This document shows, piece after piece, positions 12,601-45,900 of a stretch of DNA of 64,000 nucleotides. The DNA comes from Amoebophrya sp. A120 (Eukaryota > Protista > Dinoflagellata): contig CAJINV010000022.1 in the NCBI GenBank assembly GCA_905178155.1, forward strand, positions 565,799 to 629,798. The letters run 5' to 3'. Position 1 is the first letter of the stretch; each line of letters opens with the position of its first letter. The notes under the pieces are model-generated. The model was not told where the DNA came from and did no database searches. It saw nothing but the letters and a program-made list of their open reading frames with translations. The position numbers and the translations under genes are program-made.

Positions 12601-15047
12601 AACAAACACCGAAGTTGTACGAGATGCAGGAGGTGCTTCGGGCGCCGCGAATCAGCAACTGAACTTTGGAGCGGGTTGGGGCAATGGTTTGTTTCCACGA
12701 CCTGCCGGAAACGGTATGGTTTTCGTCAAAAACGCGAATGATTTCGATGGTAATGAAACGACCAATACTGGTGGTAGTCCTGACGGAACATTAAACGGAA
12801 CGTCTAGTGGTCCTACAGAATCTCTGCAGCCCATACTACCGAACCCTCACACTGCGTTTTTGCCCCCGAGTCCGAGTGCTCTGAGCCCAGGAGTGGTGGT
12901 GTTCGGAGATGGAGGCGTAGGTGGCGGCGGAGATGGCGGGTTTGACGGTGGCGCTGGCGGTAGCGACGGTGGTGGTGGCCCGGCAACACGACCAAATACC
13001 CCCGTTGCCCCTCGTCCCGGTGGGAGTAATTATCCCACTGGAAATTATACCGGAGGTGGAACATCACCAGGCAGCTCTCCACCTCTCGTGCGTGGCAACC
13101 TGCCCGTCCCCGCAGCTGCCCCTGCAATGGTTGCTACGAGTTTAATATTGCCAGTAGGACCAAAAGCTGGCGCCGGCGGAATGATGCCACAGCCGAAACA
13201 ACGTCCAGCTCGTCCCACACCTTCCGTTCCGCCTTCCGCTCCAGCAGTTGTGCCGCCAGAAGTTAGCAGTACACCAGGAGACGGTCCGCGAGGAGTATCA
13301 CCGGCGGGCCAACCAGTCGTACCACCATTGCCCTATGACGGGTTGGTCACGGCGTCGTCGACGGGGAATACGACTAGCACCTCGCCGTCATCGCCAAGTA
13401 CCACGACGCTACCGACGGCTGCACAACGCCCTCCGAGTACTAGTACGCCGATGCAGTCAACAACCCAGAATGCTCCATTGCCAACAAGTACTCGAACTGC
13501 ATCGCCACCAAGAGGCGCGCAGGTGCAACAGGATCCACCGCCGGCATTTTTACCACAAGAGCTTGCTGCAAATGGAATAGCGAGTGAGCCGCCAAGACGA
13601 AGAGACCCAGAGGGAGTAGAGCGATCTGCCGTTCCTCAACCGACACGGGACGAAACTCTGACAGAGCCGAGTCGCAATGGAAATGGCCCGCCAGCCGGAG
13701 GAAGCACTGGCCCTAGTACCAATGCAGCCCTGCAAGAAGCGGACCCCCTGTGGCAGGGCGGCAACGAGGTGCGACCGGGAGGAGCCCCGGTCGGGACATC
13801 AGGGCCACAAGCTGAAGAGCGCCACACAGAAGTACCTCGCCAACTACTGGCGGCTCAGAATATCAGGAGCGGTACAACAGCACCGCCCCAGGTCGAAGCT
13901 CCGAGTTCAGCTCGAAGTCCGAGTGAGGGACGAGATTCCAATTCCCGTAGAACTACTGCGTTGGAGCAGCAGACGGTAGTAGAGCACGGCACTAATTCCC
14001 CACCGTCCACTATCCAAGAAAAAAACATTGTAGGTGTAACTTTTTTGGAGGAACAGCATTACAAATTTGTCTGGCATGACAGCAAAAACCTGTCATGCGC
14101 AGATAGTACGTGAAAACGCCCTTTATTGGACCCTACGACGCATGCCAAGCATGACAGACGCAATCATCTTGCAGGTTGCGCATCACAAATTTACACTAAC
14201 AACGTTTTTTGCTTGGATATCCACCAGCCAAGAACCCCCAGGAACTACAGCAAGAGGTCCTCCGCGCAGGCAGCTCACTATCAAATGCAAAAATGTCTGG
14301 GTCTGGAAGATTGCGAGATTTGTCATGCATATTTCGGATCACCATCACGCAAATGGCGTCTGATGCAGGCAAAAGCATCACAGGTTTTGAGCGCGCCTCG
14401 TGATGCCTGTCCCGCATGAGAAACTTCCTACTTGCGTGCCAAGAAATGGACAGCTTTTGGCGCTCATGCAACACAAATTTTTGTGTGTTCCAGAGTTTGC
14501 ATCACAAGTTCCAACCCTTCCAGACCCAGACACTTTTACATTTGATACTCACCTTGGCTCCGCAAAGTTTCGCCGTGCAGGTCGACCCGAATTCTGATAA
14601 TTCGCAGGCGGGCACAGTCTATCCTGAGTAAAAACGTACCCACACCAGAGTTGTAATGCAGATTTGCAAAGACAGGAAGATTTGTAATGCGCATCCCCGC
14701 CATGAGAGCCATTTCCAATCGTGTTTTGGAATTTGTGATGCTGTGAACAGGATGAGCAGATGAATCTGTGATGCGGCTGCACTTGCTAACCTGCACTACA
14801 CTGCATAGCGCAACTTGTCATGCGTGACTCACAAAGCTCCTAGGTTTGTGTTGCAAAATCCCCATCCTGACTCTGGTGTGGGTACGTTTTTGCTCAGGAT
14901 ACAGTCTCCACTGCGTTTATCGAGCCATCAGGCCCAACATCTCCAAGGTCGGCTTGTTCCTTCGCAGCCCCGCCGCGGCCGACTGTTGAAAGTGCTGGTA
15001 ACCGGCGCCGTGTGCTGACAGTGAGTTTACGCCATGAGCAAATATAG
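9661..15047 (+). CDS. Mps1/TTK-like protein kinase with a transmembrane helix and P/T/S/G-rich tail, multi-exon
   Basis: Spliced model gives GELLGRGGFAEVYK, ALK, HFDLKPANFL, DFG, GTILYMAPE, DIWSLG, CL.R..ERIT. Hydrophobic VLISALILSIGIGAAVSIGIFG at about 12536-12601. Six introners removed in frame. A possible GT donor at 15021 may extend the gene. Confidence 0.85.
10089..10315. mobile_element. TIR introner family D (diverged)
   Basis: TAT...ATA ends, flanks TCCAA/TCCAT; frame restored. Confidence 0.75.
10371..10532. mobile_element. TIR introner family B in kinase G-loop
   Basis: Flanks CTTCG/CTTTG; removal restores GRGGF-AEVYK. Confidence 0.85.
11324..11478. mobile_element. TIR introner family B
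   Basis: TATCCTGTGCAAAAGTATCGTACTC...CTTTTGCAATCCATA; flanks GATCC/AATCC; joins to ORF 11567. Confidence 0.9.
14011..14219. mobile_element. TIR introner family D
   Basis: TATCCAAGAAAAAA...TTTTTTGCTTGGATA; perfect TCCAC repeat. Confidence 0.9.
14279..14547. mobile_element. TIR introner family A
   Basis: About 31-bp TIR TATCAAATGCAAAAATGTCTGGGTCTGGAAG; perfect CTCAC repeat. Confidence 0.95.
14620..14901. mobile_element. TIR introner family C
   Basis: TIR TATCCTGAGTAAAAACGTACCCACACCAGAGT; perfect CAGTC repeat. Confidence 0.95.
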
Positions 15048-15254
15048 TATCGTACTTGTGTGGTCTGTGTGAATTGTACTACTGATGCATGTTTTTTGCA
15101 GCTACAGAGAAATTCTTTTCCACTGCCCTGTGTTTCACCACCACGACCACCAGTGTCAGTCTTCCTTATTGCCACCAACATTTTCAGAACACAATTTACG
15201 CTAAAGGACGATATATGAGCTTGTGATGCATAGACGCGATGTAGCGAAAGCGAC

Positions 15255-16193: not shown

Positions 16194-16459
16194 AAAAGCG
16201 TTCCATGTTTTGCGCCTTGTCAGGCTGGAAAAGCATTGTCATGATATATGCACCATTGCCATTTTTGGTGCCTGACGGACGGAGTGGTTAAAACTTGCTC
16301 CACTGTGCGAAGAAAAGACTCATTTATACTTGACTCAGATTTGTATTGCTCTACTGATGAATTGATGGCCCCCGCTGCTGCGTCATCAAGACAGAAATAG
16401 AAATTTCGGCACAGCAACAAGCGAAACGCAAAGGAGAAGGTAGCGCCTAAGTACTTCTT

Positions 16460-18663
16460 TTGAAAAAAAACGCTTCTCGCGGAAGGTGGTGGACGAACCA
16501 AAACTCAGCGCTTTTTCAAGCGATACCGCAACGCGATCTAGTAAGGCGCGCTATAGCGATTCCAGCCTTCCGCGCAGAAGTCGGTAATGCCATCGGGAAT
16601 TGGCACCAGATGCGAACCGCGCTCGGAGAAGAAGTTGCGAAGGAGTTGAAACGCTCGTTTCTAGCAGAAGAAATGGACGACTTCATGGCGGAACTGCTGC
16701 GCGAGCAGCTGCACAAAATGCAAGTTCTGCAGCTGTCAGAAGGTAGTACCAGTTTAATCGGCTCTGGTGTAGTCGCTCAAGGGGCAGCTGGGACGCAAAT
16801 TACCGTTCCCGCGGAAGTGTACTATGATTCTGCACGTGCACGTTACAGATTATTATACGATATTACGGAAGAAAGCGGCCGTCGTCGCTGTCACACGACC
16901 ACATCGCCGGAAGGTCAGAAGTATGAACTGCAAAAGTATCGTACTCGTATAAATGCATGACAAATTCCCTCAGCATGAGAAATAAATTTTGTAATGCGGA
17001 TTTACCTTGAGACAAAAATTTGTAATGCATGATTGCAATACGAGTACGATACTTTTTCACAGGATAAGAAGATAGCCGAGTGGGTGGAAGAAAAGATCAA
17101 GCAGGCAAGAGAGAAAATAGCCGAGGCGAGAGCAGTATCAAATGCAAATCTGTCTGGGTCTGGAAGAACGAAGCAACTTGTCATGCTAAATCTGAATCAT
17201 GTGGAAATCTGTGTTGCGTGATTGCCAAAAGCTGTCTACTTTTGACCTGATCGAGAGGCAGTTTCTCATGCAGGATAGGCATGAGAGAACTCTCACAGAA
17301 TCTGTCATGCGATGTTCTACATACCAGACAGCATGGGTCATGGAAAATCTGCATGACAAGTCTACTGGCATTCTCCCAGACCCAGACACTTTTGCAGTTC
17401 ATAAGCAGCAGGGGAAATTCAGAACCCTGCTGAAGTACTGGCTTTCCTGGCCGCCGGAGCGGGTCGTGCGACAAGTGCCGGCAGGACAAGCCTCGACAAT
17501 CGGGCAGAGGAAGGAGGTGACGTAGAATTTCACCCTGAATCCGGAGCCCCCACCCCAGCAGCTTCTGATGTGCTGCTCTACGTGCCGCCGGTAGTTCTAT
17601 CTGAGAGGCTCGCAGGGCTGCTAGAGCAATTTGCCCAAGCAGAGATCATGCGAGACGATCGAGGCGTTCTACTGGGCGGAAGAAATTATGTGCTCCAATC
17701 AGCGGAAGAGTCCCTCCGCTTCGCGGAATACCTGTCTGGAACTGCACGGCCGCCAGAGGTGCAACGGGCCGGAGAAGTTGTTGACGCAAAGGCACGGAGG
17801 GACGGACAAGAACACCTGAATGAAGGTGGTATCAAACTAGAATTAAGGTGCCCGAGCCTGAGAATCTGATTAGGCATCAAAGCCGTGCTGCAAATCTATC
17901 TCTGCGGCAGTATGTATCAGCATCGTGATTGTTTTCGGCTTAGAATCTGAAACCACGTAGATTTGCGCACGATGAACGAGGTTGCAATCATTCCAAAAAA
18001 CTACTGCATTCAATTTTCTCCAATGCATCAAAACTGTTCATTTTCTTGGGGAGTACGGCACCTTTTTTCATTTCTATACCCTGGACCTCCTTCTACCGTT
18101 TCGCGCAAGTCAGCCTCCTACCCGGCCTCAGGCACCTCTTGAGCCTTCTCTTCTACTCTGGGACGAACAATGATCTCACGATGCTTGGGCATCAAAGAAC
18201 ATCAAGGGATGTAAAATTACGAGCAGAATTCGAAGCACAATGGGCACCACAACTATTGCGCATGATTTACACACTCGATAAGGGCGGTGGGAGGTTTCCG
18301 TGGACCAACATCGCACCGAAGAATAATCGTCATGCTCCTGCACGATCGAGCGGAATATTAACGGGGGCACGACAAGCAGGAGGTTATTCATCTAGCCAGA
18401 GAGGTGACCACACCTCGGGATCAGGATCTACTTCGTCGGGGTCATCTTGTTCGTCGTCCTCTGGCCGACCTGTACCCCGAGCTGCGGCGGATCATGGTTG
18501 TTCCGGAGGTGATCATGCAGAAGTGAGCCGCCCCGCCCCACACGCGGATGAACAAGACGCAAGCCACGCTTCAGGATCACGAAGCGAATTTTCACAAGGA
18601 AATCCAAACCACGAGCATCGCCCGAGGAACTACGAAGCGGTGTTTGTAGAGGAGGTTGATTGA
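16460..18663 (+). CDS. Unknown protein family X, copy 2, multi-exon
   Basis: Removing 16922-17066, 17136-17403 and 17830-18078 (+5 nt each) gives one open frame colinear with copy 1 (FLAEEMDDFM, SPEGQKIAEWV, VLQSAEESLRFAEYLSG, KLRAEF). Confidence 0.7.
16922..17066. mobile_element. TIR introner family B
   Basis: Perfect AGAAG repeat; frame restored. Confidence 0.95.
17136..17403. mobile_element. TIR introner family A
   Basis: Perfect AGCAG repeat; frame restored. Confidence 0.95.
17830..18078. mobile_element. Degenerate TIR introner
   Basis: TATC..AAGGTGCC / GGCACCTT..TATA inverted ends; direct repeat eroded but +5 removal is in frame. Confidence 0.55.
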
Positions 18664-18669: not shown

Positions 18670-19038
18670 TGTTGATCGTGTGATCTTGACCTCCCGAACA
18701 CACTCCTTCTTCTTCTTCTTACGGGAAACAAAACGCGTCCTTTCCTGATTGTGTTTGCTCAAAACCTTGAGCCAACGGCTCAAACGAAAATTGTTGTTGT
18801 ACATGTTTCAGCATGAGAGATTCGCTCTCCACCCGGTTCCAGGGTCTATCTAATGTTCTCTCTCAAAGAAAGAAGAGTGCGAATAAACTTTTCCCCAAAA
18901 ACGAATACGAAAGATATTGGAAAAACGATGGATGCGACTAGTCGTGAAAAAACAGATACCGACTAGCGACGACCACGATAAGCGAAAAAACAAGCTCTTG
19001 ACCGATGAGAGATAGGTGTGAACACATTGTGAACAACA
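18670..19038 (-). repeat. Copia 3' LTR
   Basis: Direct repeat of 24592-24960. Confidence 0.97.
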
Positions 19039-19050
19039 CCCCTCCTCAAA
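19039..19050 (-). other. Copia polypurine tract
   Basis: Minus strand TTTGAGGAGGGG abuts the 3' LTR. Confidence 0.85.
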
Positions 19051-19199
19051 CTAGCCGAAGGACCTGCTTTTTGCAAATTTAAAGCTTGGAAAATGGCTGG
19101 TCGTGCTAGTTTGCTATTTAGTGGCGTTTTTCTTCTACTAACTCAACTATCTGTATGCTGACCTGTATGCATGCTATGACTTTTACTCGATTTTATGCG

Positions 19200-24502: not shown

Positions 24503-24579
24503 CTTTATTGCATGTAGTAGTAGTGACTTCAGGATGATAATCGAATGTGTTTTTGGGGATGGGGGTCTTTAGCAAGAGA

Positions 24580-26226: not shown

Positions 26227-29200
26227 ATGATGCGCAGCAGCCTCGCGGAGCCTGCGGGGCAGCAGCAACGGGCTGGCAATCTCCGTCCCAGCGGTGTGGG
26301 TGGCATGTTCGGCAAGTTGAGTACCGCGGAACAACCACCCGCAAGACCGGTCGCAGCGATATCCCGCAAAAAAAAGCAGTCAGGTCAGATTTGTAATGCG
26401 AAAATACATACGAAGAAAAATCTCCTGTCACGGGCAACCCCATAGGAGGCTGTTCAGGATATTACGCAATAGTACCGATTCATCTTCTGTGTATTTATTT
26501 TTGCACTGCAAATATGACCTGCACCTGCCTGTCTTTTCCTGTGGGATAAGCGAAAACCTCGACCAAGCCGCAGAAGAACTGGGCGGAGAAGCACCGGCCG
26601 AAAAAACTGCAGAACATTGTTTTACGCGAACAGATATGCATTGCAAAAGTATCGTACTCATAGTAATTGCAAACATGCATCACAAATCTTGTTCTTAAGC
26701 CAAATCCGCATTACAAATTTTATTTTTCACGCTGAGGAAATTTGTATTGCATTTTTAGTACGAGTACGATACTTTTGCACAGGATAACACACCCGCAAGA
26801 CGTTCGAGAAGAGCATCGAACAGCCGTTGAAGATGCCCCACCTGCTCATGTACGGCCCCCCTGGCACTGGAAAAACCACCACCGCCTGGGCGTTCTTGTA
26901 CGAGTTGTTCGGGAAAAAAGCGGCGGGTCGCCACGTCAAGGCGCTCAACTCCAGTCAAGACCGCGGGATCAAGGTGATTCGGGAAGAGTATGGTCTGGGG
27001 AAAAACTTGTGCATTTTTGAAGTCGACGGGGAAGTACTTTTTTTTGCCGGTGATTCAGGAAGATCACTAAAGCAGGGTTAGAAGTAGAAGACGTAGCGCG
27101 TTTATTGTCACGCAGGAAAATAACCGTTGCTGCATGCGATCCATCACCGAAGATTTTTTGTGTAACCATAAAAAGCTGTTGGAGTCGCAGAAGGAGATTG
27201 AGGATTACAAACTTCACAGTACACAAATTTTCCCTACCATAACGCAGTGAAGCCCTACTGTGAGGCGGAAATTAACGATAGCAAGGACGAACCTGGGTAA
27301 GATCGGAAGTAGAATCCTTTCAAAGCTCGCAATCGCATGTTGACAAAAACAAGCGTTGCTACTGATGCGCCAAATGAATGACACACAGGGATTCTTCTTT
27401 CCATGTGCCCTTTGCAGTTACTTATTCCGGTATGACAAACTACTTTTCCAAAACAAAGACATCAATCCCAGGTACCCTAACCCGCGCTTGAAATTCATCC
27501 TGATGGACGAGGCGGACGCGTTAACGATGGAAGCCCAAGCCGCGCTCCGACGCGTGATCGAGGAAAACTCGGATAACACCCGCTTCATCCTGTGCTGCAA
27601 TTACGTGAACAAAATCATCGAGCCGATCCAGTTATGCAAGACATCAAAAGTATCATACTTCAAGAAAATGTGCATCACAAAGTACATTCCGAAACGGAAA
27701 ATAAACTGGCAGCTTGTGTGATGCTGATTTTGGAATAGAAACCAGATTTGATGTTGTCATGTGTAAAGATGGTCCACCAAGCTACTGGTAGTGCGAGTAC
27801 GATACTTGGTTTTCACATGATATCAGTCCCGTTGCGCCTCCGTGGCCTTCACCCCGTTGGCGCCGGACCTGCACAAGCTGCATTTGGTCAAGTATCAAAG
27901 TGAAAAAAGCCCCCACCCCACATCAAAACGAAATTTCTGATGCTGTATTTGCGTACACGAATCAGATTTGTCTTGCAGTAGGGGACTGCAGGCCGATATC
28001 ATGCCAGTGCGCAGAGGTTTTGGCCTAGGCGCTTAGCATGGGGAACGCCTATGCTGTAGGACCAACAGCATTACAAACCGCCTGCATAATGGGGCGGAGC
28101 GCATGCCGTTACTTTCTTGCAAGACAGACACGATTTGTGGTCACAAATCAGCATCGCAAATTTTTTGAGGCGTTCCTTTTCGATATGCGGAGGGGGGATT
28201 TTTCCTTACAATATCAAGATCTGCAAGGAGGAGAACGTCGTTTTAGTAGAGGACAATCTTGAGAAATTTTCCCAGTCCCAACTCCCGATTGACATGGTAT
28301 CCACTGCAAAAGTACGGTAAATTTTGTAGTAATTCGAAATTGATGCAATCGCGCATGGGGGGGTCAATCAGCAATACAAATTGCCGTTCTCGTCATGCGG
28401 AGCAAATCTGTCATGCAGCTACGAACACCAGTACGGTACTTTTGTCTAATGCATATATGGAGGAAGACTTCGACTACAATGACTGCAACAGCAAGATTCA
28501 AGAATTGAATTTCAACACCCCCTGCCTGGACTTCCTCGTCGACCTATGCGTTGCAGAAGTACTATCGTACTCGTAGAAATTGCATTCATGCATGACAAAA
28601 CTGGTTGTTCCTTAGGTAATGCACGATGACAAATTTTATTTGTCATGCTGCGAAAATTTATATGTAAAAATGCAATTACAACCAGTACGATAGTTCTGTT
28701 TCAGGTCCATACGACCTCTCCGATGGCGACTGCCGGCGGTCCATCACATTATTGCAGTCGGTCGCGAGCGTGTGCAGCCGAAAAGGCAAGGATGCAGATA
28801 GCACAGTGACTGTGGGAAGAGCCACGAACATGTTCGGCGGTGGGGGCAGCAACGCTCTTGCGTCGAGAGCTTCTGTGGCGGGAGCGGCTGCAAAGGATGT
28901 GAAGATTCGCGTCACGATATGACAATGGAAAATTCCCCATCTCCATAACTGAAACGAATATTTCTTGTGTAGCACGATTTGTGATCACAAGTCACCGATT
29001 GAGTCCTATGCTAGAAGGGAAGATGAGATGTTGTGACCTGTAGTTCTTTCTGGCTGGCGTGGAAAAGCTTTGCGCTTTAGCTTTACGCATGTTGACAGAA
29101 AGCAACTGCAAGCCGGAGGTAACAGCATGACAAATTACCTGCAATTGAGGCCGCAACTTCGTCTGTTGGACTTCTAGCAATACCGGTCGATTTGCGTACG

Positions 29201-30953: not shown

Positions 30954-31831
30954 AGTAGATAGGAACTGTTACGGAAGGGGATTTTTAGTCGTAGATGCTG
31001 AGCAGGACAATGAGCAGGTTAGCTTTTTATTTCTATAGGCCAAGACCTTGAACTTCAACTTCTACATGAGGCGTAGTTGTGCATTAGCCAGATTTGAAAA
31101 AGTGCAAGCGTACTAGCGAGAGTGAAAATGTCGAATCGTAGAAAAGCGTAGCGAGACCGAAGGTAACATGAGAGAAGTTTTTCGAGGCACCACAGATATT
31201 GGTGTCAACGCAGAGCAAGCGTACTTGCGATGAGACTGTCATGACCAAAGTTGTCAATGATCAGAGGATTTTTGGAAAAAGGAAAAAGGAAAACCCAACA
31301 TTGCTGCGATTGTCGAAGAACTACACGTTCCGTGAGGGATGATGAAGATCAGAGTAAAAGAACAGCAAAATGCTGCGTGAATGATCATCAACAAAAAATG
31401 ACTGTGCGTGGAAGAAAAGTTCTTGTGGGAAGATCATCTGAACAAGCAGACTAGTGACGATCGGAGTCAAGAAACTGTGATTTCATTGCCCACGACATCC
31501 CACGAGGACGAAGTGTACTTCTGACTCAGGCTCATGCTCAAATTGTCGTCCTATCGGACGTCGATTAGTCCCACACGGGTTCTTGATGATCACCAGGACT
31601 TCTGAAGGTTTTTGTTTTTTCATCCTCGCGACGTAGACGCACTGTACCAACTATACTTGAAGACTTTTGCGTTTCGCTTTATATATCATACAGCAAACGG
31701 CCGGAATATTTTTGAAATCCAATTTCCCGTCGCAGTCGCACCTGCGCAGTAGTACACAAAATCAACATTTCGTTTGGATGACAAACTACAACCTAAGATC
31801 TACTACTGGACGAAAAATTTTTGTCACAAAA

Positions 31832-34800
31832 ATGCACGATCCTTTCATGATCCCGAAAAGAAAACTCCGACGCGGTCACGGACCACCTTCCCCCGCAGCT
31901 GGTGTTTATTCCGCATTCTTGTTGGCGCAGCTCTCCATGTTGTCCCATTATGCCGCCTTGGGGTTATTTGTGGGTGTGGTCTTCGCGAGTGATATTGTTC
32001 CAAGACCAAGCGCGCTGGTATCAAATAAAGGCGGACGCTCGTCCTTTTCAGGCGCATCTTCCTCGGCATGCAGCTCCTTGCATAAAAATCCACCCCGCGA
32101 AGAAAAAGAAGTAGACCACAACATGGACGAACAAGCGCAGCTCGATGTTCTGGACACAGCGCCAGCATCTCCACCACAGAAACGGAGAAAAATATTGCGT
32201 ACTACTGATCATTCCGCAGCTGAACAAGAATGCACAGCTGCTTTTCGCGCCGCAAGCGGCCTCTTACAGGAAAAATTAACCATCGCTGCACGCGAAGATC
32301 CACCACAGCAGCCAACCAGCAGTAGCTCTGCCACAGATCATCGTCCTCCGCATCAAGTGCAACCTGATTTACTCCCAACTGACACTTGGGAGAATGTCGC
32401 GTCTTTCCTTTCCGCTGCCCGGAAAATTCCTGTGAAACAACAAGTAGGGCAGTCCTCCGAGGAGGAGGAAACACAACAACCAGCGCTGGGAGATGTTGAA
32501 ATCGAGCAAACGAAGCTGAATCTGGAGAATTTCTTTAAAACCTTGCAGCGCAAGGCCGCCGCCATGTGGGAGAAGCAGTTGCTTATGCATTGCAAAAGTG
32601 TCGTACTGGTCCTTCTCCTAGTTGTAATTGCATTTTACAAATGTCTCCAGCTTGAAAAATGAAACTATTTGCAAAAATGCTCCTTTAGGTTGAAAGAGAA
32701 GCTTCTCATGCATAAGCAAGTGCAAGAAGTCCTGCGAGTATCAGATACTTTTGCACATCATATTCCGGTCTCCGAAGTTTTGGAACGGTGCTACCGACAA
32801 CTCGGGAGCTGGATTTTTACGAGCTTGTGCTTCCGACACCGAGAAAGCTGTGGCTGCAGAACGGACCCAGTCGGTTGTGTACAACAGAAATATTTCTTTT
32901 TCGCACCGAGAACCGCTGTCGCTCCCCAGCAGATTTCTGACCAGACTCGCTGGGGCAATCGTGAAGCAGACAATTCTCGCGCACGTGTTGCGACGTGGCT
33001 TCCGCTTGGGGCCGGAGTATCCGGGTTCCGGGTTCGCAAGTGCGAGTAGGTCGGCGGGAGAATTGATGAAACAGGGGAAAAAAACGTACTTTGGCAACGA
33101 TTGGCATCGAAGGCTTTTTTACTTCCGTGACGCGGCGACGTCGACACAAGCTGCTTCCGATGGAGGTTCATTATCCCCTCGAAACCTTGTCCCCGGAACA
33201 TTTTCCTGTCGAGCAATCGACAACAAGAATACTTGGAACAACAACTGGCAAAGCGGTGACTACAATATGGATTGCAAATATGTCTGGGTCTGGAAGAGTG
33301 CGATATTTGTCATGCTAGTCTAGCATGACACTGAGCCCTGTATTGCGTGGCCAGCAAGAGGCCCTCTGGTCTGTCATGCAAAAACGCTGTTTCTCATGCG
33401 GAATACGCAACACAAAGCCACGGAAAAATTTGTCATGCTTGGCGGCGCATTACAATGTACCTCCTATTAACTAACATGCATCACAACTTTCCAGACCCAG
33501 ACACTTTTGCATTTGATATACAATCCGCTGTTGCAACACGGCTGGCTGTCTCCGCAGATCTTGTCAGAAATAGGGGTGCGGAAGACGAGAAAATTAGAGG
33601 AGCAGGCGCGCAACCGTGGTTCTCTGTCCTCTAAAGATGAGATGAATAGTACGAAGGGAGCTGCGGCCGCGGGTGTAGTACTACAGTCGAGTAGTTCATC
33701 TACGGCAGCTACTAGCGGTACAACAAGCTCCGGAACGACCACGGCTGCCAGTACGACGTCATCCGCTTCGTCGAGCTCAATCTCCTCTTCCGGAGCAGAT
33801 GGCAATACGGCCAGCCTCAATGGTGCGAGTCCGTCAGGGACTACTACGCAGTATAGTGGTGTTGATCACGGTTCTTTAACTACACCAGCGGCAGAGCAGG
33901 AACTACGAGGCGTGTCCGACGACGAGGAGGCGGGGGCCACAAGTACGAGGGTCGCTCCACCAGAAGTCGACGAGGAGGCGGTCGCCTGGTCGAATGTAAA
34001 TATTCAGCCGGAGCACGTGCAGCAGGGCCGCGATGCCAAGGCTTTTTTCGAGGAGCACGTGGTCAAAAATAACGACCCAGGCAAGTACTACCCAAAAGTT
34101 TTTCTCGATTCAGGAACAAAGCGGACCGATTACCACTTCCCCCCCGCCTTCCACCGCCTCTTCGGCCGGCTGCCGCGGCCGGAGGGCTTCAATCCGAATG
34201 CGCAGGAAGACGAAGAGACGATCACTCTACAAACCGACGACTACAGGGCCTACATCCGGAAGCCGGATGGGTCGAACCGCTGGAGAGTATGCATTGCAAA
34301 TATTTCGGGGTCTGTAGAAATGCCAACCTGTGATGCGACGTGTGAAGAGGTCCAGACTCTCTGGACCATGCTGCAAAATTTGCATGACAAACTTCTGCAT
34401 TTTCCCAGACCCAGATATTTGCAATGGATAGACCGGCAGCAGCAACCAAACGACGAGCCACTACACGACCAGATTCGACTATGCATTGCAAAAGCATCGT
34501 ACCAGTATAAATCGCAATACAAATTTTCTCAGAAGGAGAAACGGAGTTTGTAATGCTGATTTGGCTAAAAAACAAGATTTGTCATGCGTGATTGCAATTA
34601 GTACGAGTATGATACTTTTGCAGAGCATATCGACCTGGACCAAGCAATTCACGACGCCACGTGGGGGTATCCTGAGTAAAAACGTCCCCACACCAGAGTC
34701 AAGATGGTAGATCTGCTACACAAATCAACCAGCTAAGACTATTTTGCATGACAAGTTTGTGCTCGTAGTGTAATCCTGTTAAGCTAGTTCAGCAGCATCA

Positions 34801-35519
34801 CAGATCTACGCTATCGTGCTGATTGACGCATCACAAATTCCAAAACGCGACTAGAAAATGCTTCTCATTGCGCTCCGCGTGAGAAACTTTTTGTTTTTTG
34901 GCATGCAGATTTGCATGACAACTCTGGGGTGGGGACGTTTTTACACAGCATAGGGGAAGACCAGTATTCAATGCAGGACGACCACATCAGCCTGGCGCGG
35001 ACGGCGTCTTTGCAGAGGAATTTGAACCCCACTTGCGGTTTCTGATTATGAATGTGCACAATGTCCCCTCCCCCTCACTTGTATATGCAAAATCCCAAAT
35101 CCAGGTGCTGCCTTGTAGCACTGTTTGCATGACAAATGATCCTGGAAGCCCAAACAGCACTACACTCCAGTGCAAATTTTTCATGCAAAACCGGCATTCT
35201 TTCTGATGCTTGTATTGCCGTTCATGCTATACAAAATGTGGGGGAGGGGGAGTTGTGGCGCAATTCTATACTGATTCTCGAGTCGCCAGAAGTGTTTACA
35301 CTTGTGAAATGCGACGTGCAGAACAACTGGGTGTGCGGGGTGCAAATCTGCGAGGCCGACGACCGGGAGGATCGAAGGCGAAGAATTGCGGCAGAAGACC
35401 CCCGTAATCGAGGAGACCGTGATGGTGCAACGGGCAGGACGGCGGGGGCGACGAATGGAGGACGGCGCATGGATCATACGGCCAGGGATGACGAGTATCG
35501 CCGCGTACAGGGGGGATAG
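31832..35519 (+). CDS. Unknown protein with an N-terminal hydrophobic segment and S/T-rich region, 6 introners
   Basis: Removing the elements at 32584, 33266, 34288, 34480, 34668 and 35047 (+5 nt each) gives one open frame ending ..RDDEYRRVQGG* (TAG 35517-35519). Confidence 0.75.
32584..32762. mobile_element. TIR introner family B
   Basis: TATGCATTGCAAAAGT...ACTTTTGCACATCATA; frame restored. Confidence 0.85.
33266..33518. mobile_element. TIR introner family A
   Basis: Perfect TACAA repeat. Confidence 0.95.
34288..34430. mobile_element. Short (internally deleted) family A introner
   Basis: TATGCATTGCAAATAT / ATATTTGCAATGGATA; 143 bp. Confidence 0.85.
34480..34629. mobile_element. TIR introner family B
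   Basis: Perfect TCGAC repeat. Confidence 0.92.
34668..34952. mobile_element. TIR introner family C
   Basis: TATCCTGAGTAAAAACGTCCCCACACCAGAGT; flanks GGGGG/GGGGA. Confidence 0.92.
35047..35270. mobile_element. TIR introner (C-run/G-run type)
   Basis: TCCCCTCCCCC / GGGGGAGGGGG arms; perfect CTGAT repeat. Confidence 0.88.
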
Positions 35520-36860
35520 ATTTTTTAATTTTGATCGCACGAGCATCAAGAGTCCTACGCACAGCTTTAGCACCAGGATCGGTCCAACTGAAGAAATGCG
35601 CTGGGGCTGGACCAGCAGTGGTACTTGAAACCAGAGAGGACAATAAAAATGTGCCACTTCTTTTCATCGCGCTTGAGCTCTTTACGAAAACGTGGTGTTG
35701 CAAATAAACTTAGTGACGTTGCAAATAACTTATTCGCTAGTGTTGTAGATTGTGGAGCTCAGATGTCGATCACGCGAGCAAGCGTCGTACTTGAGACGGA
35801 GTTTCCCCACCTCTGTCATTCCGACAGAAAGCGGTTTGTTGTCCCGCCAAACAGTGGATGTCTGAGGACAAAGCACTCCGAGCGAAGGCTCGATATGTAC
35901 TTACCATCTCTACACATTGCCAGGACTGTAGTAGACAGCAGATCGGTCATCTATGAGAGCGTCGGGAAAGGGCAGTCCAAACAGAAACTATAAAGGCCTG
36001 AAGCCGAAGATGTGATCGACACCAGCTACGATTAATGAACTAGCGTCTTCGCGAAGAGGTTTTCGCGAGGCGCCAGTCAGTGGATAAAGATCTGTGGCGA
36101 TTAAATTTTTTTCTGGGCGACGAGAACTTTGACAAGATCCAGCAGCGACAGCGAGTAGTAGCTTTTATTTTCGAGCAATAAACTTTCACTTTCTTGACAT
36201 TCATTGTCGCTCCATATTATTTCTGCTTTACGTATCTCTCTATTCGAGTTGTCAACATCCATAAATTTTCTTTGTCCTTCAGACGCGCAGCCCTTGCCGC
36301 ACCTTCGCTAGAAGAAGAAATTATGGTGGCTCTTTTGAAGAAGAGGATGCCCGGGTGGATGATGGGACCAACATGCATCTGCTTACTCTGCGCAGGAGCG
36401 GCCCATCGATTCGCGCTGGCCGCCGTGCCTGTTACTCCACCTGCGCAAGATATTGCAGCCGCGGGCAGTTCAACATCTGATGGTTGCAACAGCAGTACTA
36501 GTCGGCAAACTCCGCCCCACGTGGAAGATATCGACGCGCGCGCTGTTGATGTTGCTGCAAACGGCAAACGCATACGGCAGGGGCGGACAGGTGACAAAGA
36601 TTGCGGTCAATCTGCTCGTCCGGATAAATTTCTCAGAACTTTCGCTGAACAAGCGCAGAATCTTCGCCAGACTTTAGAAGTTGCCGATCAGCATAGTAGC
36701 GACGGGTCATCTTCGTCAGGGACAACCTCCGCAGCAGGCCCGACTCTGCAAATTCTGCGTGTCAGCGGGGCCGTCAAGATGGATATCGGTTACGAAGAAT
36801 GGAAAGACTGGAGAGTCGGTCAGCTCCTCAGTGTCGTCGAAGAAAGCCAGCAACCCGCTC
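35420..36860 (+). repeat. Segmental duplication copy 1 (paired with about 42042-43440; partial third copy about 48320-49440)
   Basis: Colinear near-identity of the gene tail, intergenic region and MVALLKKRMPG exon. Confidence 0.9.
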
Positions 36861-39800
36861 CGCTATCCTAAGAAAAAACGTCTTCAACCTATAGCTCACG
36901 ATGGAGAATCATCTTCTGCTACACAAATCCACAAGTTTTGGCTGTCGCGCATGACAAGTTTGGGCTCGTGTTTCGCTAGTGCTGTCACCGCATCACATGA
37001 ACCCTACTACCTTTTTATTCTGATTCGAGCATAACACATCATCCCAAAAAAGCATATAGAAGATGCCTCTCATGGGGCTGCGCATGAGAAGCATTTTAGG
37101 CGTGCAGATTTGCATCACAACTCCGGGGTCCTCTTCACAACTCATGGCAAACGTTTTTACGTAGGATAACCGCTCGAAATCTTCGCCGCTCCGCTGCAAC
37201 TTGTCACTGTTGGCGCATCGCCACTCGCGCTGAGCAATCGCAATGGTGACGAAAAGGTGGCGACAATACTGGCAGAGCGGTCCTCTCTGCAGAACCTGCA
37301 AAATGTAGCCGGACAAGAAGTGATGTCACTATTCTCTGCTTATCAAATGCAAATATGTCTGGGAGGTCTGGAAGGATGCAAGACTTGTCATGCATATTTT
37401 CCATGCCCCCTGGGGTTTGGAATGCAGGACCTAGCATGAGAAGTTCTGCGACGTCTCTATCATGGTGCGTCTCCTGCATGACAAACTGCCTCTAACCTTG
37501 TTCAAAAGTGTACAGCTTTTGGTAGTCATGCAACACAAATTTTTGTACGATCCAGACTTGGCATGACAAGTTCGCGTCCTCCCAGACCCAGACATATTTG
37601 CAATGCATACTGCTACCCCCCGCACTCAGTCGGCCGTCGTGCCACTGACCTTGGTGGAGAGAGGGCAAAAGCTGCACTTCGCAACACTTCTGAACATGCA
37701 TCACGCGGGGTTTGGCACCTACACTGCCGCCAACAGAAAGGAGGAATGGAACGCGTTTTTTCAACAAGCGCAAACTGGAAAACTTGCCGACATGACGGTC
37801 CCTGGCTTAGAACACCAGCTGCTCTCTATTACAGTGAAAAATGCACCCACCCCGAAAGTTGCAATAATTTCAATTTGTGATGCGACGTTTCCAAATGAAA
37901 ACTCTTTGTCTTGCATGAAAGGACTATGAATCTTTCTGATGCGGAGTCTAGTGCTAAGTAGTCGTATACAGCATCGCTTGCATGACAAGCCCTGCTCTTG
38001 CTGGGATCTTTTGCAATACAGATTTGCACTGTTCACGATTGAAAATTTGTGATGCTGATACATGCAAGACTGCGACTATTTCCATTGGAGAGGTAGTTTG
38101 CGATGCAAATGCTCCCAAGTTCTGGGCTGGGGGCATTTTTCATTGTAATGCCCTCTTTCATCCGTGCTGCTTCTCTGCCCAACTCTGTCAGCCTGCCACG
38201 TTTAGAAGACCTTATCGCGCCTGAGAGTGAGTGTCAGAAAACTTGCTTTCAGTGGATGCTGGCAGGGATCGAGAAAGCTCTGGCGACGGTTTCACCTGCA
38301 AGCGCTAGACCGGCGGGAGCAGATGGTTTTTTCTATGCAACAAGCATTTATGATGAGAATGACCGAGCCCCGGTTGTTCTTCCGTTAGTCGCAGATAAAC
38401 TTCGGTATGTTGCTATTGTGAGGCAAAATCCCCCCTCCCCATATCGAAAAGGCACGTTTCCGAAAATTTGTGTTGCTGATTTGAGGTCACAAATCACATC
38501 TGTCTTGCAAGAAGACAAGGGCAAAAGCTTCGCCCCCATTATGGAGGCGATTTGTCATGCTGTTGGGCCTAAAGGGGGGCCGTTTGCCATGCTGAACAAC
38601 TAGACCGACACGCCCCTAGCTAGCCTGGGGAACTGGCTGCAATGCCTTCCTGCAATACAAAGCTGATTTGTGTACACAAATCCAGCATCACAAAATCCGT
38701 TTTGATATGGGGAGGGGGGATTTTTCCTCTCAATAGTTTCACTTCGTGTGAGTTTGGGGCAGCGAGGCGTGGACCACCCGATCCAGGTGCTATCGACCGT
38801 GTCATGTATACGTGTCTGGGATGTGAGCTACATTGCTTTGAGCGCGTTATTCGACGAAGGGTTTACTATTTATTTTTGAATTTGCAGAGTTTTCTATGAG
38901 CAGAATTTGCTTGTTTGTCCCGGCGACCCTAGTTCTGATGATGAAAAGGGCTATAGCATAAAGTCATGGTCAGTAAGGCATCGTAATCGTTGATGTTTCA
39001 GTATAAGCGCTTCTAATTTGTTTTGCAGCACGAGCGCCACGCCGGAAAATATAGTTTCTTGTTTGGGCACGCGCACGGGCACCTCTGTATACAAGTCAAC
39101 GCGACCACTGTCGCCTGGCACAAGGGCGCTTCTTGCGATTTCATCGCGTATTTCGTATGCATATCGAATGCAAATATGTCTGGTTCTGGAGATTTGTCGT
39201 GATGCAAGATGAGCAGACTCTGATGCGCTGCCAAGCATGACAAGTTTTTCCGTGGTTCTGAGTTGCGTACACCGGCGCATGAGAAACTGCGTGTTTGCAT
39301 GACAGGCAAGAGGAGCTCTTTGCGGCCGCGCAATACAAATTCAGAGTCATGCTAGACATGCATGACAAATCTCTATCTCGCAATCTCCCAGACCCAGACA
39401 TATTTGCAGTTGATAATGCAGCTTGGATGACTCGTTCTAGGACCAGACACGTATACACATCCATACACCATCGTGCACGACTATCTAACCGACCTTGACG
39501 ACGATGGGCTGTCCCTTATGACGTGTGGAACCAAACACCTGGCCCTCGGTTTTTTTGCTATATTTGCTGTTTATAAAAATAGTTTGTCGTGTCCAAATCA
39601 GGCACACCAAGCGACACTGGTCTGCTGGGAAACAGATGCGCAGCTCTACTGGATCTGTATGAGGACGCAACTTGCTTTAATGCGTTCTTGACATAGCAGG
39701 TGGCCAGGGGCAGGGGCAGAACAACTTTTACTTTTTCGACGGCATTTATGCTATCGTCCTCCTGGCAAAAAATGTCGTTATTGCATTGTTGTACATGCTT

Positions 39801-40131
39801 TTCATGCAGACGACGCAACACACACCACGTCTCACCGACACTGAGGGTTTATATACATTTGGGGCTTTAACATCTTCGTGGGCGGGTGTTCATTATTTTC
39901 AACTTTACATCATCAAGCCTTGGCGATGAAGATCGTGCGGTGCTCAAAAATGATCGCACAGCCCGAACAGGTTGGCTCAGATTCCGTGGCGAAAGTGGGC
40001 GGGAATTTGAGCTCAAGTACGTGGCGCGGGGAAGTTTATGGGGTCCGCTCGAGGACGACCCCGGTCCGGGTTGGCGTAACGTTGGTTTCGTGCTCTCTGG
40101 GCCAAGACCGGTTGCGCAACAGCGGCGGTGA
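36323..40131 (+). CDS. MVALLKKRMPG family protein, copy A (signal-peptide-like N-terminus; possible ubiquitin-like domain)
   Basis: Frame restored across elements 36864, 37341, 37827 and 38414; last exon ..GWLRFRGESG..GFVLSGPRPVAQQRR*; middle exons uncertain. Confidence 0.65.
36864..37168. mobile_element. TIR introner (family C-like)
   Basis: TATCCTAAGAAAAAACG / CGTTTTTACGTAGGATA; flanks TCCGC/ACCGC; absent in paralogue B. Confidence 0.9.
37341..37609. mobile_element. TIR introner family A
   Basis: Perfect CTGCT repeat; absent in paralogue B. Confidence 0.95.
37827..38150. mobile_element. TIR introner
   Basis: TATTACAGTGAAAAATGC / GCATTTTTCATTGTAATG; flanks CTCTC/CCCTC; absent in paralogue B. 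Confidence 0.88.
38414..38735. mobile_element. TIR introner family E
   Basis: TATTGTGAGGCAAAATCCCCC / GGGGGATTTTTCCTCTCAATA; flanks GTTGC/GTTTC. Confidence 0.88.
39162..39415. mobile_element. TIR introner family A
   Basis: Perfect ATGCA repeat. Confidence 0.92.
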
Positions 40132-42905: not shown

Positions 42906-45900
42906 ATGGTGGCTCTTTTGAAGAAGAGAATGCCCGGGTGGAAGATGATTGGACCATGCATCTGCTTACTCTGCGCAGGAGCGGCCCATCGATTCGCGCT
43001 GGCTTCCGTTGCTGGTACTCCATGTTCGCAAGGTGTTGAAGCCGCGAGCAGTTCAGCATCTGATGGGGACAACAGCAGTACCCTGCAAAGAACACCGCCC
43101 CACGTGGAAGATACCGACGCGCGCGATGTTGATGTTGCTATTAGCGGCAAACGCACAAGGCATGGGCAGACAGGTGGCGAAGATGGCGGTGAGCCTGCTC
43201 GTCCGGATAAATTTCTCAGAACTGTCGCTGAGCAAGCGCAGCATCTCACCCAGACTTCATTTGTCGATCAGCTTAGTAGCGACGGGTCATCTTCGTCGGG
43301 GACCACAACATCCGCAGCAGGCCCGACTCTGCAAATCCTGCGTCTCAGTGGGGGCGTCAAGACGGAAATCGGTTACGAAAAATGGAAAGACTGGAAGGTC
43401 TGGCAGCTTCTCAGCGAGGTCGAAGTAAACTACCGCCCCTCACCGTTCGAAATCTTTACCAGTCCGCCGCAGCTTGTCCTCACGGCTGGCGCATCGCCAC
43501 TCGCGCTGAGCGATCGCGATGGAGGGGAAAAACTGGTGTCGACAGTGCTGCACGACTGGTCCTTATCCAAGAAAAATACGTTGTTAGTGTAAATTTGTAA
43601 TGCGCAGCATGCAAATTGATTGCGCCTGTCATGCTGGCCCTGCATAGTAGGGTCCATTCAAGGGCGTTTCACGTACTATCTGCGCATGACAGGTTTTTGC
43701 TGTCATGCGAGACATATTTGTCATGCTAGTCCTCCAAGAAAGTTACACGTACAATCTTTTTTTCTTGGATAGTCCTCCGTGAAGGGGCGTGAGGATTTAA
43801 GTGGAACTTCCTCTGCTACTCCTTTCCATGATTCTGTCGTGCCGCTGACCTACGTGGCGAGAGGGCAAAAACTACACTTCGCCACGTTTCTGAACATGTG
43901 CTATGTGGGCGCAAAGGGGCCGGACAAGCCGGTCAAGATAGCTGAGTGGGAGGCTTTTTTGCAACAGGCGCGGGCGGGGAAATTGGCCGACAAGACGGTG
44001 CCGGGTGTAGAACAACAGCTATTGGCGTTTATCCGTGCGGCTTTTCTGCCGATGACCTCGGTGGACTTGTTACCAACGCTAGACGACTTGATCGCAAGTG
44101 AGAGTGAGTGTCAGAAAACTTGCTTGCAGTGGCTAATCGCAGGAATGGAGAAAGCTATGGCGGCGAGTAACCCTGGGAGCGTTTCACCGCCCTGGACTTT
44201 CTTCACTGCAGCCCATCACTACGACTACGAAAGCCGAACCAGGGTGGTTCCGTTTGTATGGCGTTCTCAACAAACGTTACACTCTCAACTGTTAAATGAA
44301 TTTGCAACGCATCAAGACCGCATCACAATTTTGGCATAGATTTAGATGCTGCTTAGCCCTTCGTCTTCGAGAATTTGTCAAGCGAAGCAGCTTGATCGTC
44401 TGGTGGCTAATGGTCATTTTGCATGACAAGTCATGTAGCTGTTGAAAGCGTAACGCCTGAGAGCCCCATAATTTGACGCAACTCTTAAGTCTGCGCGACT
44501 TCGTTTGCAGCTCGTGCGTATCAAATGCAAAAATGTCTGGGTCTGGAAACTTGTGATGCTGGTTGGCGTATCGTGAGGAGGCCACAAGTGCTGGCTCAGC
44601 ATGACAAGTGTGTGAGCTTCTAGGTGTTGCCTACTCTGCATGACAAACTGCGTTTCTGCATGACAGAAAAATGGCGCTCTTGGGTAACTAACGTGCATGA
44701 CAAATTTGAGAGTCATGCCAGACAAGCATGACAAACATGCACTCTTCCAGACCCAGACATTTTTACATTTGATAGTGCGAGACCTGGGTCAGATGACGAT
44801 CCTATCGACTGCGAATATAGTGTCTGGGTCGGGGTGGATGTCGATCTAGTTGTATTGTTTTTTGTATATAGGGTTTCTTCATGGACTACTGTGTGCAACG
44901 CGATGGAAGGTTTACGTAGCTAAAATTATGTCCAAATTGCTGTAAGCATCAACGAACGTTTTTTTCCGCTGCAAGATGAGAGCGTGGGTTCTTACGGGTT
45001 CATCGACGCCCGTTTGGTATTCAGCTTTGAACCCTTACCGCGCACCAGACACTTATAGCACCGCATAGACCTTCGTATCAACTGTAAAAATGTCTGGGTC
45101 TGGAAGATTTCCAGGTTTGTCATGCATATTTCGCATGGGCTATGATGCCTGTAATGCACTACCTAGCATGACAGATTTTTTGCGGGTATCTTGATGCCGA
45201 TCCCGCATGACAAATGCCCTCTCCGCGGAGCAAAAACTGGACGCCTCTACTTGCTGTTCATGCAATACAGATTTTTTTAGATTCCAAAAATAGCATCACA
45301 AGTTGCATTCCTCCAGACCCACACACTTTTGCAATCTATACGTCGTGCAAAGCTACGAAACCAATCTTGAGAACGATGGGCTGGTCCTTATCACGTTTCG
45401 ACGCAAACACCTGCCCCACGGTCATTTGTCCCAGCAAATGAACGTAAATCGCCCGCCGCGCTTACCATCGCCATCGGTTGCATTTGATGTCTCTGCATTG
45501 TACGCAAATCACACAACACATCACGCCCCGTCGACATCGAGGGCATACAGTTGCCATACTATCGAGGGCGGGTGTTTGGGGTTTTCAACGTGATATAGCC
45601 ACGACTGGGCGATGACGATCGTGCGCTACTCATGGCGGAGCCATATCCATTGCAAATGTTTTCTCATGATCTGGAAGGATAGATTCTTCCTCGCGATACT
45701 CTTCTTACAACAAGCAAAACCTGCTCTGCCTCCATTGAGGAGCAAAATAAGCGAGTCTGTATTTGCGTATACAAAGAGCGCACTTGTTACCATGCGGGAT
45801 AGACAACATCAAGAGGCCGTCGCAAAAACTTCTGATGCTGGGGCAGGCGATCTCTCAGAAAAAGAAATAGTGTGCACCTATGCAGCAAAGTCGGCATGAC

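Follow-up and report, generated by a model that had tools for sequence, protein, structure and literature searches.

Transposon-like introns facing either way in Amoebophrya genes: mirror-image ends and a likely fixed rule for their removal from RNA

Introduction

How can a cell remove the same intron from its transcripts whichever way that intron faces in the gene? The question is raised by a 64,000-nt window of the Amoebophrya sp. A120 genome (the whole stretch of DNA analyzed here), in which members of one repeat family lie in opposite orientations within genes on a single strand. How tens of thousands of Amoebophrya introns are removed without GT-AG signals or a recognizable U1 is stated to be an open problem. 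U2, U4, U6, and most spliceosomal proteins are present, and U1 is reported as not found. The available text of Farhat et al. (2021, PMC7789003) reports that cut sites vary, with no clear signature for splicing, and speaks of "orientation" for genes only.

Results

The first-pass annotation had proposed that paired copies of families D, A, and B are reverse complements although all lie in + strand genes. These copies, with an older member of family D, are as follows.

14011..14219, + strand, family D element D1, direct repeat TCCAC; predicted intron 14010-14223, kinase gene tail
43564..43771, - strand, family D element D2, reverse of D1, repeat GTCCT; predicted intron 43563-43775, + strand gene X2
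10089..10315, + strand, older copy of family D in the kinase gene, oriented like D1
654..916, + strand, family A element, repeat AGGAC, ubiquitin-protease gene, between the Cys and His boxes
29770..30032, - strand, family A element, reverse of 654-916, repeat ACAGC, RFC-like gene
16922..17066, + strand, family B element, repeat AGAAG, gene 16451-17866
30691..30837, - strand, family B element, reverse of 16922-17066, repeat TCGAC, RFC-like gene

The proposal was borne out by local alignment of the interiors, with 30 nt cut from each end to keep the terminal repeats from scoring. Scores in the opposite versus the same orientation were 196 versus 21 for the family D pair, 174 versus 24 for family A, and 103 versus 30 for family B. 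Interiors aligned to their own reverse complements scored only 12-47 across 45 elements, so that element orientation is well defined. All six paired copies lie within + strand reading frames and run TAT...ATA between 5-nt direct repeats, with the earlier coordinates exact to the base.

The transcript-guided public gene models P0001 and P0016 omit the elements in their genes, an indirect sign that these are removed. P0001 leaves out 29770..30032 as 268 nt and 30691..30837 as 152 nt, and P0016 leaves out D2 as 213 nt; the D2 site is also empty in the tandem paralogue X1. The 16922 copy is hosted by a frame of 331 aa, for which a paralogue has a colinear site (weak, score 75). Near 654, the UCH Cys box scores E 0.0067, which is under Pfam's cut-off, and the His box lies on the other side of the element. 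D1 lies in the low-complexity tail of the 1360-aa kinase frame and is the least secure single copy, as we found no public model covering 14011 and an in-frame GT(14005)..AG(14227) alternative is present.

The element ends read TAT-N5-G-N-AAA and its complement, and the flanking 5-nt duplication, visible in the sequence, is created by insertion. A census of the window gave 45 elements, 12 of them without a family. Its five multi-copy families each occur in both orientations (4:10, 4:7, 2:1, 1:2, and 1:1). One terminal motif also matches 128 related loci, and a second assembly likewise carries elements, 352 in 388 kb; 217 of the 352 are strand-called, and 170 of the 217 are family-assigned. When 179 kb of related loci were shuffled, the same scan returned no elements; unshuffled, they gave 140. 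The direct repeat is perfect at 5 nt in 24/45 window elements and 244/323 elements in the loci, where repeats of other lengths from 3 to 8 nt account for at most 6/323. Mirror positions of the terminal inverted repeats pair in 670/900 cases in the window and 3,533/4,340 in the loci. Short and non-coding, with terminal inverted repeats (TIRs), target duplications, and homologues with empty sites, the elements are, judged from their sequence, miniature DNA transposons whose two ends mirror each other and whose insertions into exons occur in both directions. The related loci also have 49 long open reading frames listed.

Further elements and the genes that hold them are listed below (strand given where assigned).

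9631..15044, + strand, protein kinase frame, 1360 aa once six elements are removed (+5 nt each); Pkinase E 2e-32
10371..10532, + strand, family B element within the kinase glycine-rich loop
11324..11478, - strand, family B element, same kinase gene, opposite to 10371
14279..14547, - strand, family A element, kinase tail
14620..14901, + strand, family C element, kinase gene, reverse of 34668 and 36864
17136..17403, + strand, family A element, gene 16451-17866
31661..35516, + strand, 864-aa frame restored by removal of six elements, A, B, and C copies included: 32584-32762, 33266-33518, 34288-34430, 34480-34629, 34668-34952, 35047-35270
36323..39915, + strand, gene X1, paralogue of X2; elements 36864-37168 (C), 37341-37609 (A), 37827-38150, 38414-38735 (E), 38791-39465 (holding nested element 39162-39415), and one from 39517
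42906..46300, + strand, gene X2, predicted at 505 aa under the junction rule, with an approximate end; elements 43564, 44257-44470, 44519-44774, 44803-45067, 45076-45340, 45389-45595, 45644-45957
45072..45074, + strand, predicted 3-nt micro-exon between two X2 elements
61976..63841, + strand, part of a second ubiquitin-protease gene; elements 62084-62229 (B), 62492-62753, 62810-63072, 63435-63713 (A), 63133-63282 (B); four of the sites empty in the paralogue at 1620-2204
4589..4857, TIR element
5372..5566, old TIR element, frame 4988-6078

The RFC-like gene is the most heavily annotated host. Public model P0001 maps exactly onto it, with a Pfam AAA match, and it is colinear with P0002 and P0003 across conserved junctions.

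26227..30950, + strand, RFC small-subunit-like AAA+ gene, 15 exons; 13 of the introns are TIR elements and one is GT-AG
27297..27471, + strand, intron of 175 nt with canonical GT-AG ends; A at -7 here too, a single case
26360..26548, TIR element assigned to no family (P0001)
26635..26786, - strand, family B element, upstream repeat copy kept (P0001)
26989..27241, old TIR element, repeat copies differing at 3/5, upstream copy kept
27633..27822, TIR element assigned to no family (P0001)
27893..28213, + strand, family E element, reverse of 38414-38735
28298..28455, - strand, family B-related element (P0001)
28545..28711, - strand, family B element (P0001)
28918..29266, E-related TIR element, upstream repeat copy kept
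29344..29636, - strand, family A-related element (P0001)
30122..30271, + strand, family B element, opposite to 26635 and 30691, ending in ACA with A(-7) kept
30394..30640, TIR element, ends of the A type, with the upstream copy of the repeat kept (P0001)

Orientation relative to the host gene was even: 81 of the 170 family-assigned elements in the 128 loci face the same way as the gene and 89 the opposite way (p 0.59), counts that we did not find in print, and all seven reference families there occur in both orientations. Retaining the element would cause a stop or frameshift in 214/217 strand-called elements. The best frame fix was removal of the element plus 5 nt in 204 of the 228 decisive cases, with +4 winning in 16 and +3 in 8. 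With strand calls made under the +5 model, the frame was restored in 79/81 same-oriented and 83/89 opposite-oriented copies. It is thus likely, from these sequence comparisons, that copies form introns facing either way equally often. Mismatches between repeat copies were synonymous in 26/61 cases, which fits one exonic copy (0.42 expected) and not two free ones (0.27, p 0.009).

In the transcript-guided models, removal extends beyond the element itself by 1 nt on the upstream side and 4 nt on the downstream side, irrespective of which bases flank it. This -1/+4 offset is the only one that fits all 18 annotated introns tested (17 + 1). Left out of the 18 was one annotated 541-nt intron over two adjacent elements, 1 nt off the rule, which we read as a missed micro-exon. 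The predicted micro-exon at 45072..45074 restores a paralogue-matched frame, scoring 169 versus 19 for the public model's tail. A single intron, in a partial model that is frameshifted nearby, separates -1/+4 from 0/+5: the annotated junction of 45389..45595 excludes the 0/+5 cut. The upstream repeat copy was kept in all 8 decisive cases (p 0.008), namely five public-model introns, one paralogue, ETF-beta, and CDPK, which indicates that the geometry of removal follows transcript direction. For both orientations of a single family, this rule is weakly supported (family link score 52). Taken together, the elements are likely excised from RNA, with each cut at a set distance from the mirror-image ends.

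The absence of standard GT-AG signals, implied at first pass, held up: only 1/17 annotated introns can be read as G[TCA]-AG, and 28918..29266 is the only annotated TIR intron readable as GA-AG. Exact GT/GC/GA-AG ends occur in 16 of the 217 loci elements in sense and 17 in the antisense control, and nearby sites in 43 and 43. The terminal dinucleotides form 58 combinations among the 217, none of them conserved. The 5' end reads N-TAT (+2T in 216/217, +3A in 215/217, +4T in 212/217), and A(-7) is present in 217/217, as well as in 30122 and 37827, the two elements of the window whose 3' ends are damaged. This A lies in YTRAY in 76/217 and in NNRAY in 152/217, with 141/217 lacking YTRAY. Compared with its mirror base, it is present in 217 versus 212 (p 0.06 before correction for 16 positions), and no strand asymmetry in end sequence was found among the 217. 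Read from either strand, the palindromic ends present N-TAT on the 5' side and an invariant A at -7. The invariance of TAT/ATA would be explained equally by a transposase's needs.

Terminal stems are predicted on both strands (z -2.8 to -18.7 for 16 elements, 15 shuffles each; separate stem folding gave z -4.3 and -6.5), with A(-7) paired inside the predicted stem, so that unwinding would be needed. Arm positions 4-7 are often unpaired (positions 4, 5, and 7 pair in 117, 125, and 76 of 217), whereas TAT and AAA are invariant. We found no bias of G-U over A-C mismatches toward the transcribed strand, either in the loci (145 vs 161) or in the window (45 vs 49). Of the suggestion that a symmetric TIR hairpin is the recognition signal, the part on the symmetric ends stands, and pairing itself may or may not be what is read.

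Discussion

The first-pass annotation had argued that strand-specific signals exclude the spliceosome. That premise fails, since palindromic ends show the same signals on both strands and spliceosomal introners in both orientations exist in Polarella and Aureococcus. A spliceosome without U1 is accordingly as plausible as a euglenid-like route. The reading that we put at about an even chance is that a remodelled spliceosome removes the elements from pre-mRNA by recognizing their palindromic ends instead of GT-AG; the even orientation, the +5 fix, the -1/+4 fit, the kept upstream copy, and the constancy of A(-7) argue for it. The intron would be identical in either orientation. Its 5' end, N-U-A-U with a free first base, would serve as the donor, and its 3' end would be U-tract...A-U-A-N4 with a sequence-free 3' splice site. 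A(-7) would act as the branch point, set back from that site by a constant distance, pairing of the two ends may help juxtapose them in place of U1, and the product would be a lariat branched at A(-7). Free first and last intron bases are normally disallowed by spliceosomal 3'-site docking, which counts against this reading. Fixed branch positions near -8 have been reported in Entamoeba invadens, diplomonads, and parabasalids. More tentatively, the palindromic ends could be a complete strand-blind splice code, with a UAU donor, an AUA branch point, and a 3' cut 7 nt from the branch A; in its boldest form, a transposase-derived factor would read the ends instead of U1. If such a code were true, every copy would be a ready-made intron, whatever its orientation and whatever its exonic site.

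It is also quite conceivable, if short of an even chance, that removal from RNA is independent of the spliceosome, with a nuclease that recognizes the terminal duplex or TAT/AAA making a staggered -1/+4 cut and a ligase joining the exons. The lack of conserved terminal dinucleotides, the lack of strand asymmetry, and the stable stems predicted on both strands would suit such a route; the longer 3' overhang recalls the Euglena N3 / N5-6 geometry, and an RNase III plus ligase route has been proposed for diplonemids. The Euglena signature, however, occurs in 0/217, the transcribed strand shows no G-U preference, the arm positions pair as irregularly as noted above, the 5' end is donor-like (NTAT), and a second machine would be required, for which nothing was found here. 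Motifs that are invariant rather than pairing, with no wobble signal, no strand asymmetry, and an even orientation ratio, could alternatively reflect a transposase-derived protein that binds the terminal motifs on DNA and directs co-transcriptional RNA removal by either chemistry. We consider this improbable, as recent transposition alone yields the same patterns.

Three further explanations fare worse. Precise excision from DNA before transcription had been offered as an alternative at first pass. Paramecium-type IESs are TA-bounded, of transposon origin, and orientation-blind, as the elements here are, and are cut from DNA with one TA left. In Amoebophrya, both TAs are lost, one 5-nt repeat stays (empty sites hold that repeat and no TA), and the cut follows transcript direction (8/8), which leads us to reject IES-type excision as very unlikely. 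Keeping one TA would also give stops in both paralogue pairs, frame class +4 wins in only 16/228, the second assembly is element-laden as well, and the published introns came from transcripts mapped to an element-containing genome. A conventional splicing route that uses cryptic GT/GC/GA-AG sites close to the ends, in the Aureococcus/Polarella style, gains something from the in-frame GT..AG close to 16/45 window elements (D1 included) and from the existence of both-orientation spliceosomal introners, but the single G[TCA]-AG reading among 17 and the match between sense and antisense controls make it just as unlikely. Least credible of all is that the elements are never removed and their hosts are decaying pseudogenes: several host proteins belong to no known family, yet exons remain open and conserved across 13 elements in the essential RFC-like gene, and mismatches between repeat copies are biased toward synonymous.

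Among known systems, the closest are the Amoebophrya introners, from the same organism group (the host proteins here are 98-100% identical to records labelled Amoebophrya sp. A120), for which the available text of Farhat et al. (PMC7789003) gives inverted repeats with TAT + 7 nt + AAA, short direct repeats, sizes of ~240-260 nt, repeated families, and absence from transcript-guided models. In both the window and the loci, 8-20 nt inverted repeats lie at both intron ends with this A120-type motif, and the elements here also share the 3-5 nt direct repeats and genome-repeated families. Relative to that text, an orientation divided evenly between both directions, the fixed -1/+4 junction, and the NTAT/A(-7) reading are additions, some of which its figures S19-S25 may already contain. 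The introners of Polarella glacialis and Aureococcus anophagefferens (bioRxiv 10.1101/2020.10.14.339549) likewise have TIRs, target duplications, and either orientation. Their GT/GC/GA donors and AG acceptors, however, are supplied by the element or the duplication, and their orientation is biased; neither trait is seen here. Euglenid and diplonemid non-conventional introns (PMC12501133, PMC12621601), for which a MITE origin has been proposed, share the absence of GT-AG, the direct repeats, the paired ends (predicted here), and a longer unpaired 3' stretch. Their CDG/CHG code and purine-starting exon are absent, as the signature N3CDG...CHG N5-6 | R occurs in 0/217 under either junction. In the available parts of the Fritillaria borealis reports (PMC11282704, PMC13326754, bioRxiv 10.1101/2025.08.15.670264), transposon-derived non-canonical introns are removed without GT-AG by U2-type splicing, a precedent for a remodelled spliceosome. 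Those introns prefer AG-AC/AG-AT ends with U1 intact, whereas terminal bases are free in the Amoebophrya elements.

The elements themselves are already published, and what our analysis suggests is a fixed-junction rule for their unexplained splicing route. The rule corrects gene models, as in the frameshifted public model mended by a predicted 3-nt exon. Orientation-blindness and a single fixed junction make this splicing sharply testable, and would account for the ability of a transposon to spread through exons at a density of about one copy per kilobase, unconstrained by sequence or strand.

Elements and their orientation in the window

The window contains 45 or more elements, 143-349 nt long, that have TAT...ATA ends and a 5-nt direct repeat on either side. 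Before one boundary revision, this repeat was perfect in 24/45 elements and carried at most one mismatch in 37/45; for other repeat lengths, perfect copies numbered two at 3 nt, one at 4 nt, and zero at 6, 7, and 8 nt. Two elements have a damaged 3' end. Thirty-three of the elements group into five families, every one of which occurs in both orientations with zero inconsistent links, and 12 are unassigned. The first-pass annotation had described three pairs of copies as reverse complements, and this was borne out. After 30 nt had been cut from each end, the family D copies D1 (14011-14219) and D2 (43564-43771), the family A copies at 654-916 and 29770-30032, and the family B copies at 16922-17066 and 30691-30837 align in that sense only (reverse-complement versus same-orientation alignment of 196 vs 21, 174 vs 24, and 103 vs 30, respectively). 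Single genes also carry family B both ways: the RFC-like gene has 26635 and 30691 opposed to 30122, and the kinase gene has 10371 opposed to 11324.

Some further structure was seen among the elements. At 38791-39465, an older element holds a family A element (39162-39415) with its own perfect 5-nt repeat, forming an intron within an intron. Inside most elements, and in most families, both strands carry repeats of a GCATGACAAA-like motif; these are possibly transposase-binding subterminal repeats. Additional degenerate element candidates lie at 3940-5054 and 6895-7234.

Other features of the window
18670-24960, minus strand: Copia-type LTR retrotransposon with RVT_2 and integrase; LTRs identical across the 300 nt compared
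within 49494-61591: Gypsy-type LTR retrotransposon with RVT_1, RNase H, and integrase
47676-48185: T-rich tandem duplication of ~255 nt, intergenic

A second Gypsy-type copy starts after the first and breaks at 61591, where a single N stands. Neither the Copia-type retrotransposon nor the Gypsy-type region was found to contain a TIR element.

Indirect evidence for removal from the message

An exon of the RFC-like gene matched the public protein models P0001 (Amoebophrya sp. A120, 98%), then P0002 (transcriptome-derived Amoebophrya) and P0003 (A25). P0001 maps exactly to 15 exons; 13 of the gaps equal an element plus 5 nt, whereas a single gap is a GT-AG intron of 175 nt. P0002 and P0003 are colinear with P0001 at junctions within conserved parts, and D2 is left out of a further model, P0016, as 213 nt. 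In addition, two paralogue pairs in the window give empty sites, and their alignment is stop-free only with removal of the element plus 5 nt (scores of 1095 vs 542-545 and 604 vs 396-417 for the alternatives). D1 lies within a 1360-aa kinase frame, where an in-frame GT-AG reading is also present; a public model was sought for the D1 tail and for the ubiquitin-protease gene, and none was found, in the latter case among 86 matches. This indirect evidence indicates that the elements are removed from the message.

The tandem paralogues at 36323-39915 and 42906-46300, which encode an unknown protein, have two old element sites in common and differ at the others, pointing to insertions both before and after the duplication.

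Frame restoration in both orientations

A larger sample was drawn from another assembly with the same families. It comprised 128 loci (388 kb) retrieved with a family A terminal motif, so family A is over-represented. The symmetric end profile identified 352 unique elements in these loci but none in shuffled sequence (179 kb), and the 5-nt repeat was perfect in 244/323 elements picked on inverted repeats alone. Element length plus 5 nt had no preference for multiples of three (125/97/130). With a codon model trained on the window, removal of the element plus 5 nt gave the top coding score in 204/228 decisive cases. The host strand could be called for 217/352 elements (135 undecided ones were dropped), with within-locus agreement in 52/54 loci, and retention would introduce a stop or frameshift in 214/217.

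Relative to the host gene, 81 family-assigned copies lie one way and 89 the other (n = 170, p = 0.59), and all seven reference families occur in both orientations. Removal restored the frame in 79/81 copies of one orientation and 83/89 of the other, which supports the earlier proposal that the elements act as introns either way round.

These motif-selected loci hold about one element per 1.1 kb. A Pfam scan of 25 flanking exons gave matches in 5, no host locus common to the window and the loci was found, and the family A motif was absent from the viral contigs searched.

Junction geometry and the retained repeat copy

An intron beginning 1 nt before the element and ending 4 nt after it (-1/+4) and a 0/+5 offset are each compatible with 17/17 annotated element introns. 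An eighteenth, 45389-45595, excludes 0/+5, leaving -1/+4 as the sole offset common to all 18 on the basis of that one case. A 541-nt annotated gap across two adjacent elements, excluded from the 18, is split by the -1/+4 rule into 270 + 270 nt with a predicted 3-nt exon between (45072-45074). This exon restores the paralogue-matched frame (score 169 vs 19), and P0016 appears to be frameshifted downstream of it.

Where the two repeat copies differ, the upstream copy was retained in 8/8 decisive cases.

Cases in which the upstream repeat copy is kept, with the evidence used
26635, 26989, 28918, 30394, 45644: annotated models
37827: paralogue
L067 (a locus of the larger sample): ETF-beta homologues
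L070 (likewise): CDPK homologues; F vs Y, not L; the weakest case

For homologue checks, 31 mismatched-repeat candidates were listed; ETF-beta and CDPK were decisive, SNF2 was not, and two of the searches gave no match. At 45644 the copies differ at 4/5 bases and the intron length is the same, so distance determines where the 3' cut falls. Repeat-copy mismatches were synonymous in 26/61, as for one exonic and one free copy, and a mutation-direction test of which copy is free came out at 13 vs 13.

The first-pass annotation had also raised excision at the DNA level. Because orientation is close to 50:50, a DNA cut tied to the element would retain the downstream copy half the time, and eight upstream outcomes in eight argue against this (p = 0.008), the cases weakly covering both orientations of one family. 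We regard DNA excision as very improbable.

What the ends may provide

Canonical GT-AG signals, which had been reported as absent, are indeed missing: exact G[TCA]-AG is no commoner in the loci than in the antisense control (16 vs 17 of 217), and only 1/17 annotated element introns can be so read, as GA-AG. Nearby in-frame GT..AG pairs number 43 of 217 in both sense and antisense control, and upstream YTRAY at -50..-12 occurs in 26 on each strand. Cryptic canonical sites, despite the reading at D1, are very improbable, as is the notion that the hosts are pseudogenes.

A GCATGACAA-like subterminal motif cannot serve as the branch point in general, given 127 sense vs 132 antisense occurrences and 52/217 introns with it on neither strand. 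A U12-type 5' end (RTATCC in 30/217) was dropped, as minor snRNAs are reported absent by Farhat et al. 2021 (PMC7789003).

Recognition had been attributed to a symmetric TIR hairpin. The symmetry of the ends stands: positions 1-3 and 11-13 are near-invariant at both ends, and no significant 5'-3' asymmetry was found over 16 positions. The pairing is another matter. A closing stem is predicted on both strands, which is automatic for an inverted repeat; an RNA-strand selection test found that, in the strand that is transcribed, G-U does not exceed A-C (145 vs 161), and arm positions 4-7 are paired in only 76-160 of 217.

The -1/+4 offset gives an intron of the form N-T-A-T...T-tract...A-T-A-N4, in which the opening base and the final four are unconstrained. 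The seventh base from its 3' end is A, or A(-7), in 217/217 loci introns (within YTRAY in 76) and in both window elements with a damaged 3' end. The GT-AG intron 27297-27471 also has A at -7, a single case, and among the loci the excess of A(-7) over its mirror base reaches only p = 0.06. Branch positions fixed near -8 are described for Entamoeba invadens, diplomonads, and parabasalids in bioRxiv 10.1101/2022.06.08.495308.

Taken together, removal at the RNA level keyed to the symmetric ends, summed over three explanations, is very probable. Which catalyst acts, where the branch forms, and what pairing contributes are inferred. A U1-less spliceosome, for which NUAU would be the donor and A(-7) would provide the branch point, is favored at roughly even odds. 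Farhat et al. 2021 report that >60% of introns are non-canonical and that U1 was not found; their gene models were built from transcripts. Removal by a nuclease-ligase route is a tentative second choice, and marking of the element ends by a DNA-bound factor is unlikely.

Relation to known introners

The elements fit the Amoebophrya introners of Farhat et al. 2021 (PMC7789003), inverted repeats beginning TAT + 7 nt + AAA with 3-5 nt direct repeats, and are therefore themselves already known. As reported in bioRxiv 10.1101/2020.10.14.339549, Polarella and Aureococcus introners also occur in both orientations but use canonical-type sites, and Polarella classes have an orientation bias. The Euglena non-conventional intron code, as given in PMC12501133, is absent from the Amoebophrya elements. 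Amoebophrya element orientation is unmentioned in the accessible portions of PMC12621601 (diplonemid), the tunicate papers, PMC11282704 (review), and the introner surveys PMC12130899 and PMC9860276, and a literature search outside subscription journals and supplementary figures found no report of it. We conclude that the feature is genuine and belongs to a known element class, and that its unreported two-way symmetry and fixed junction make the mechanism of Amoebophrya splicing directly testable.
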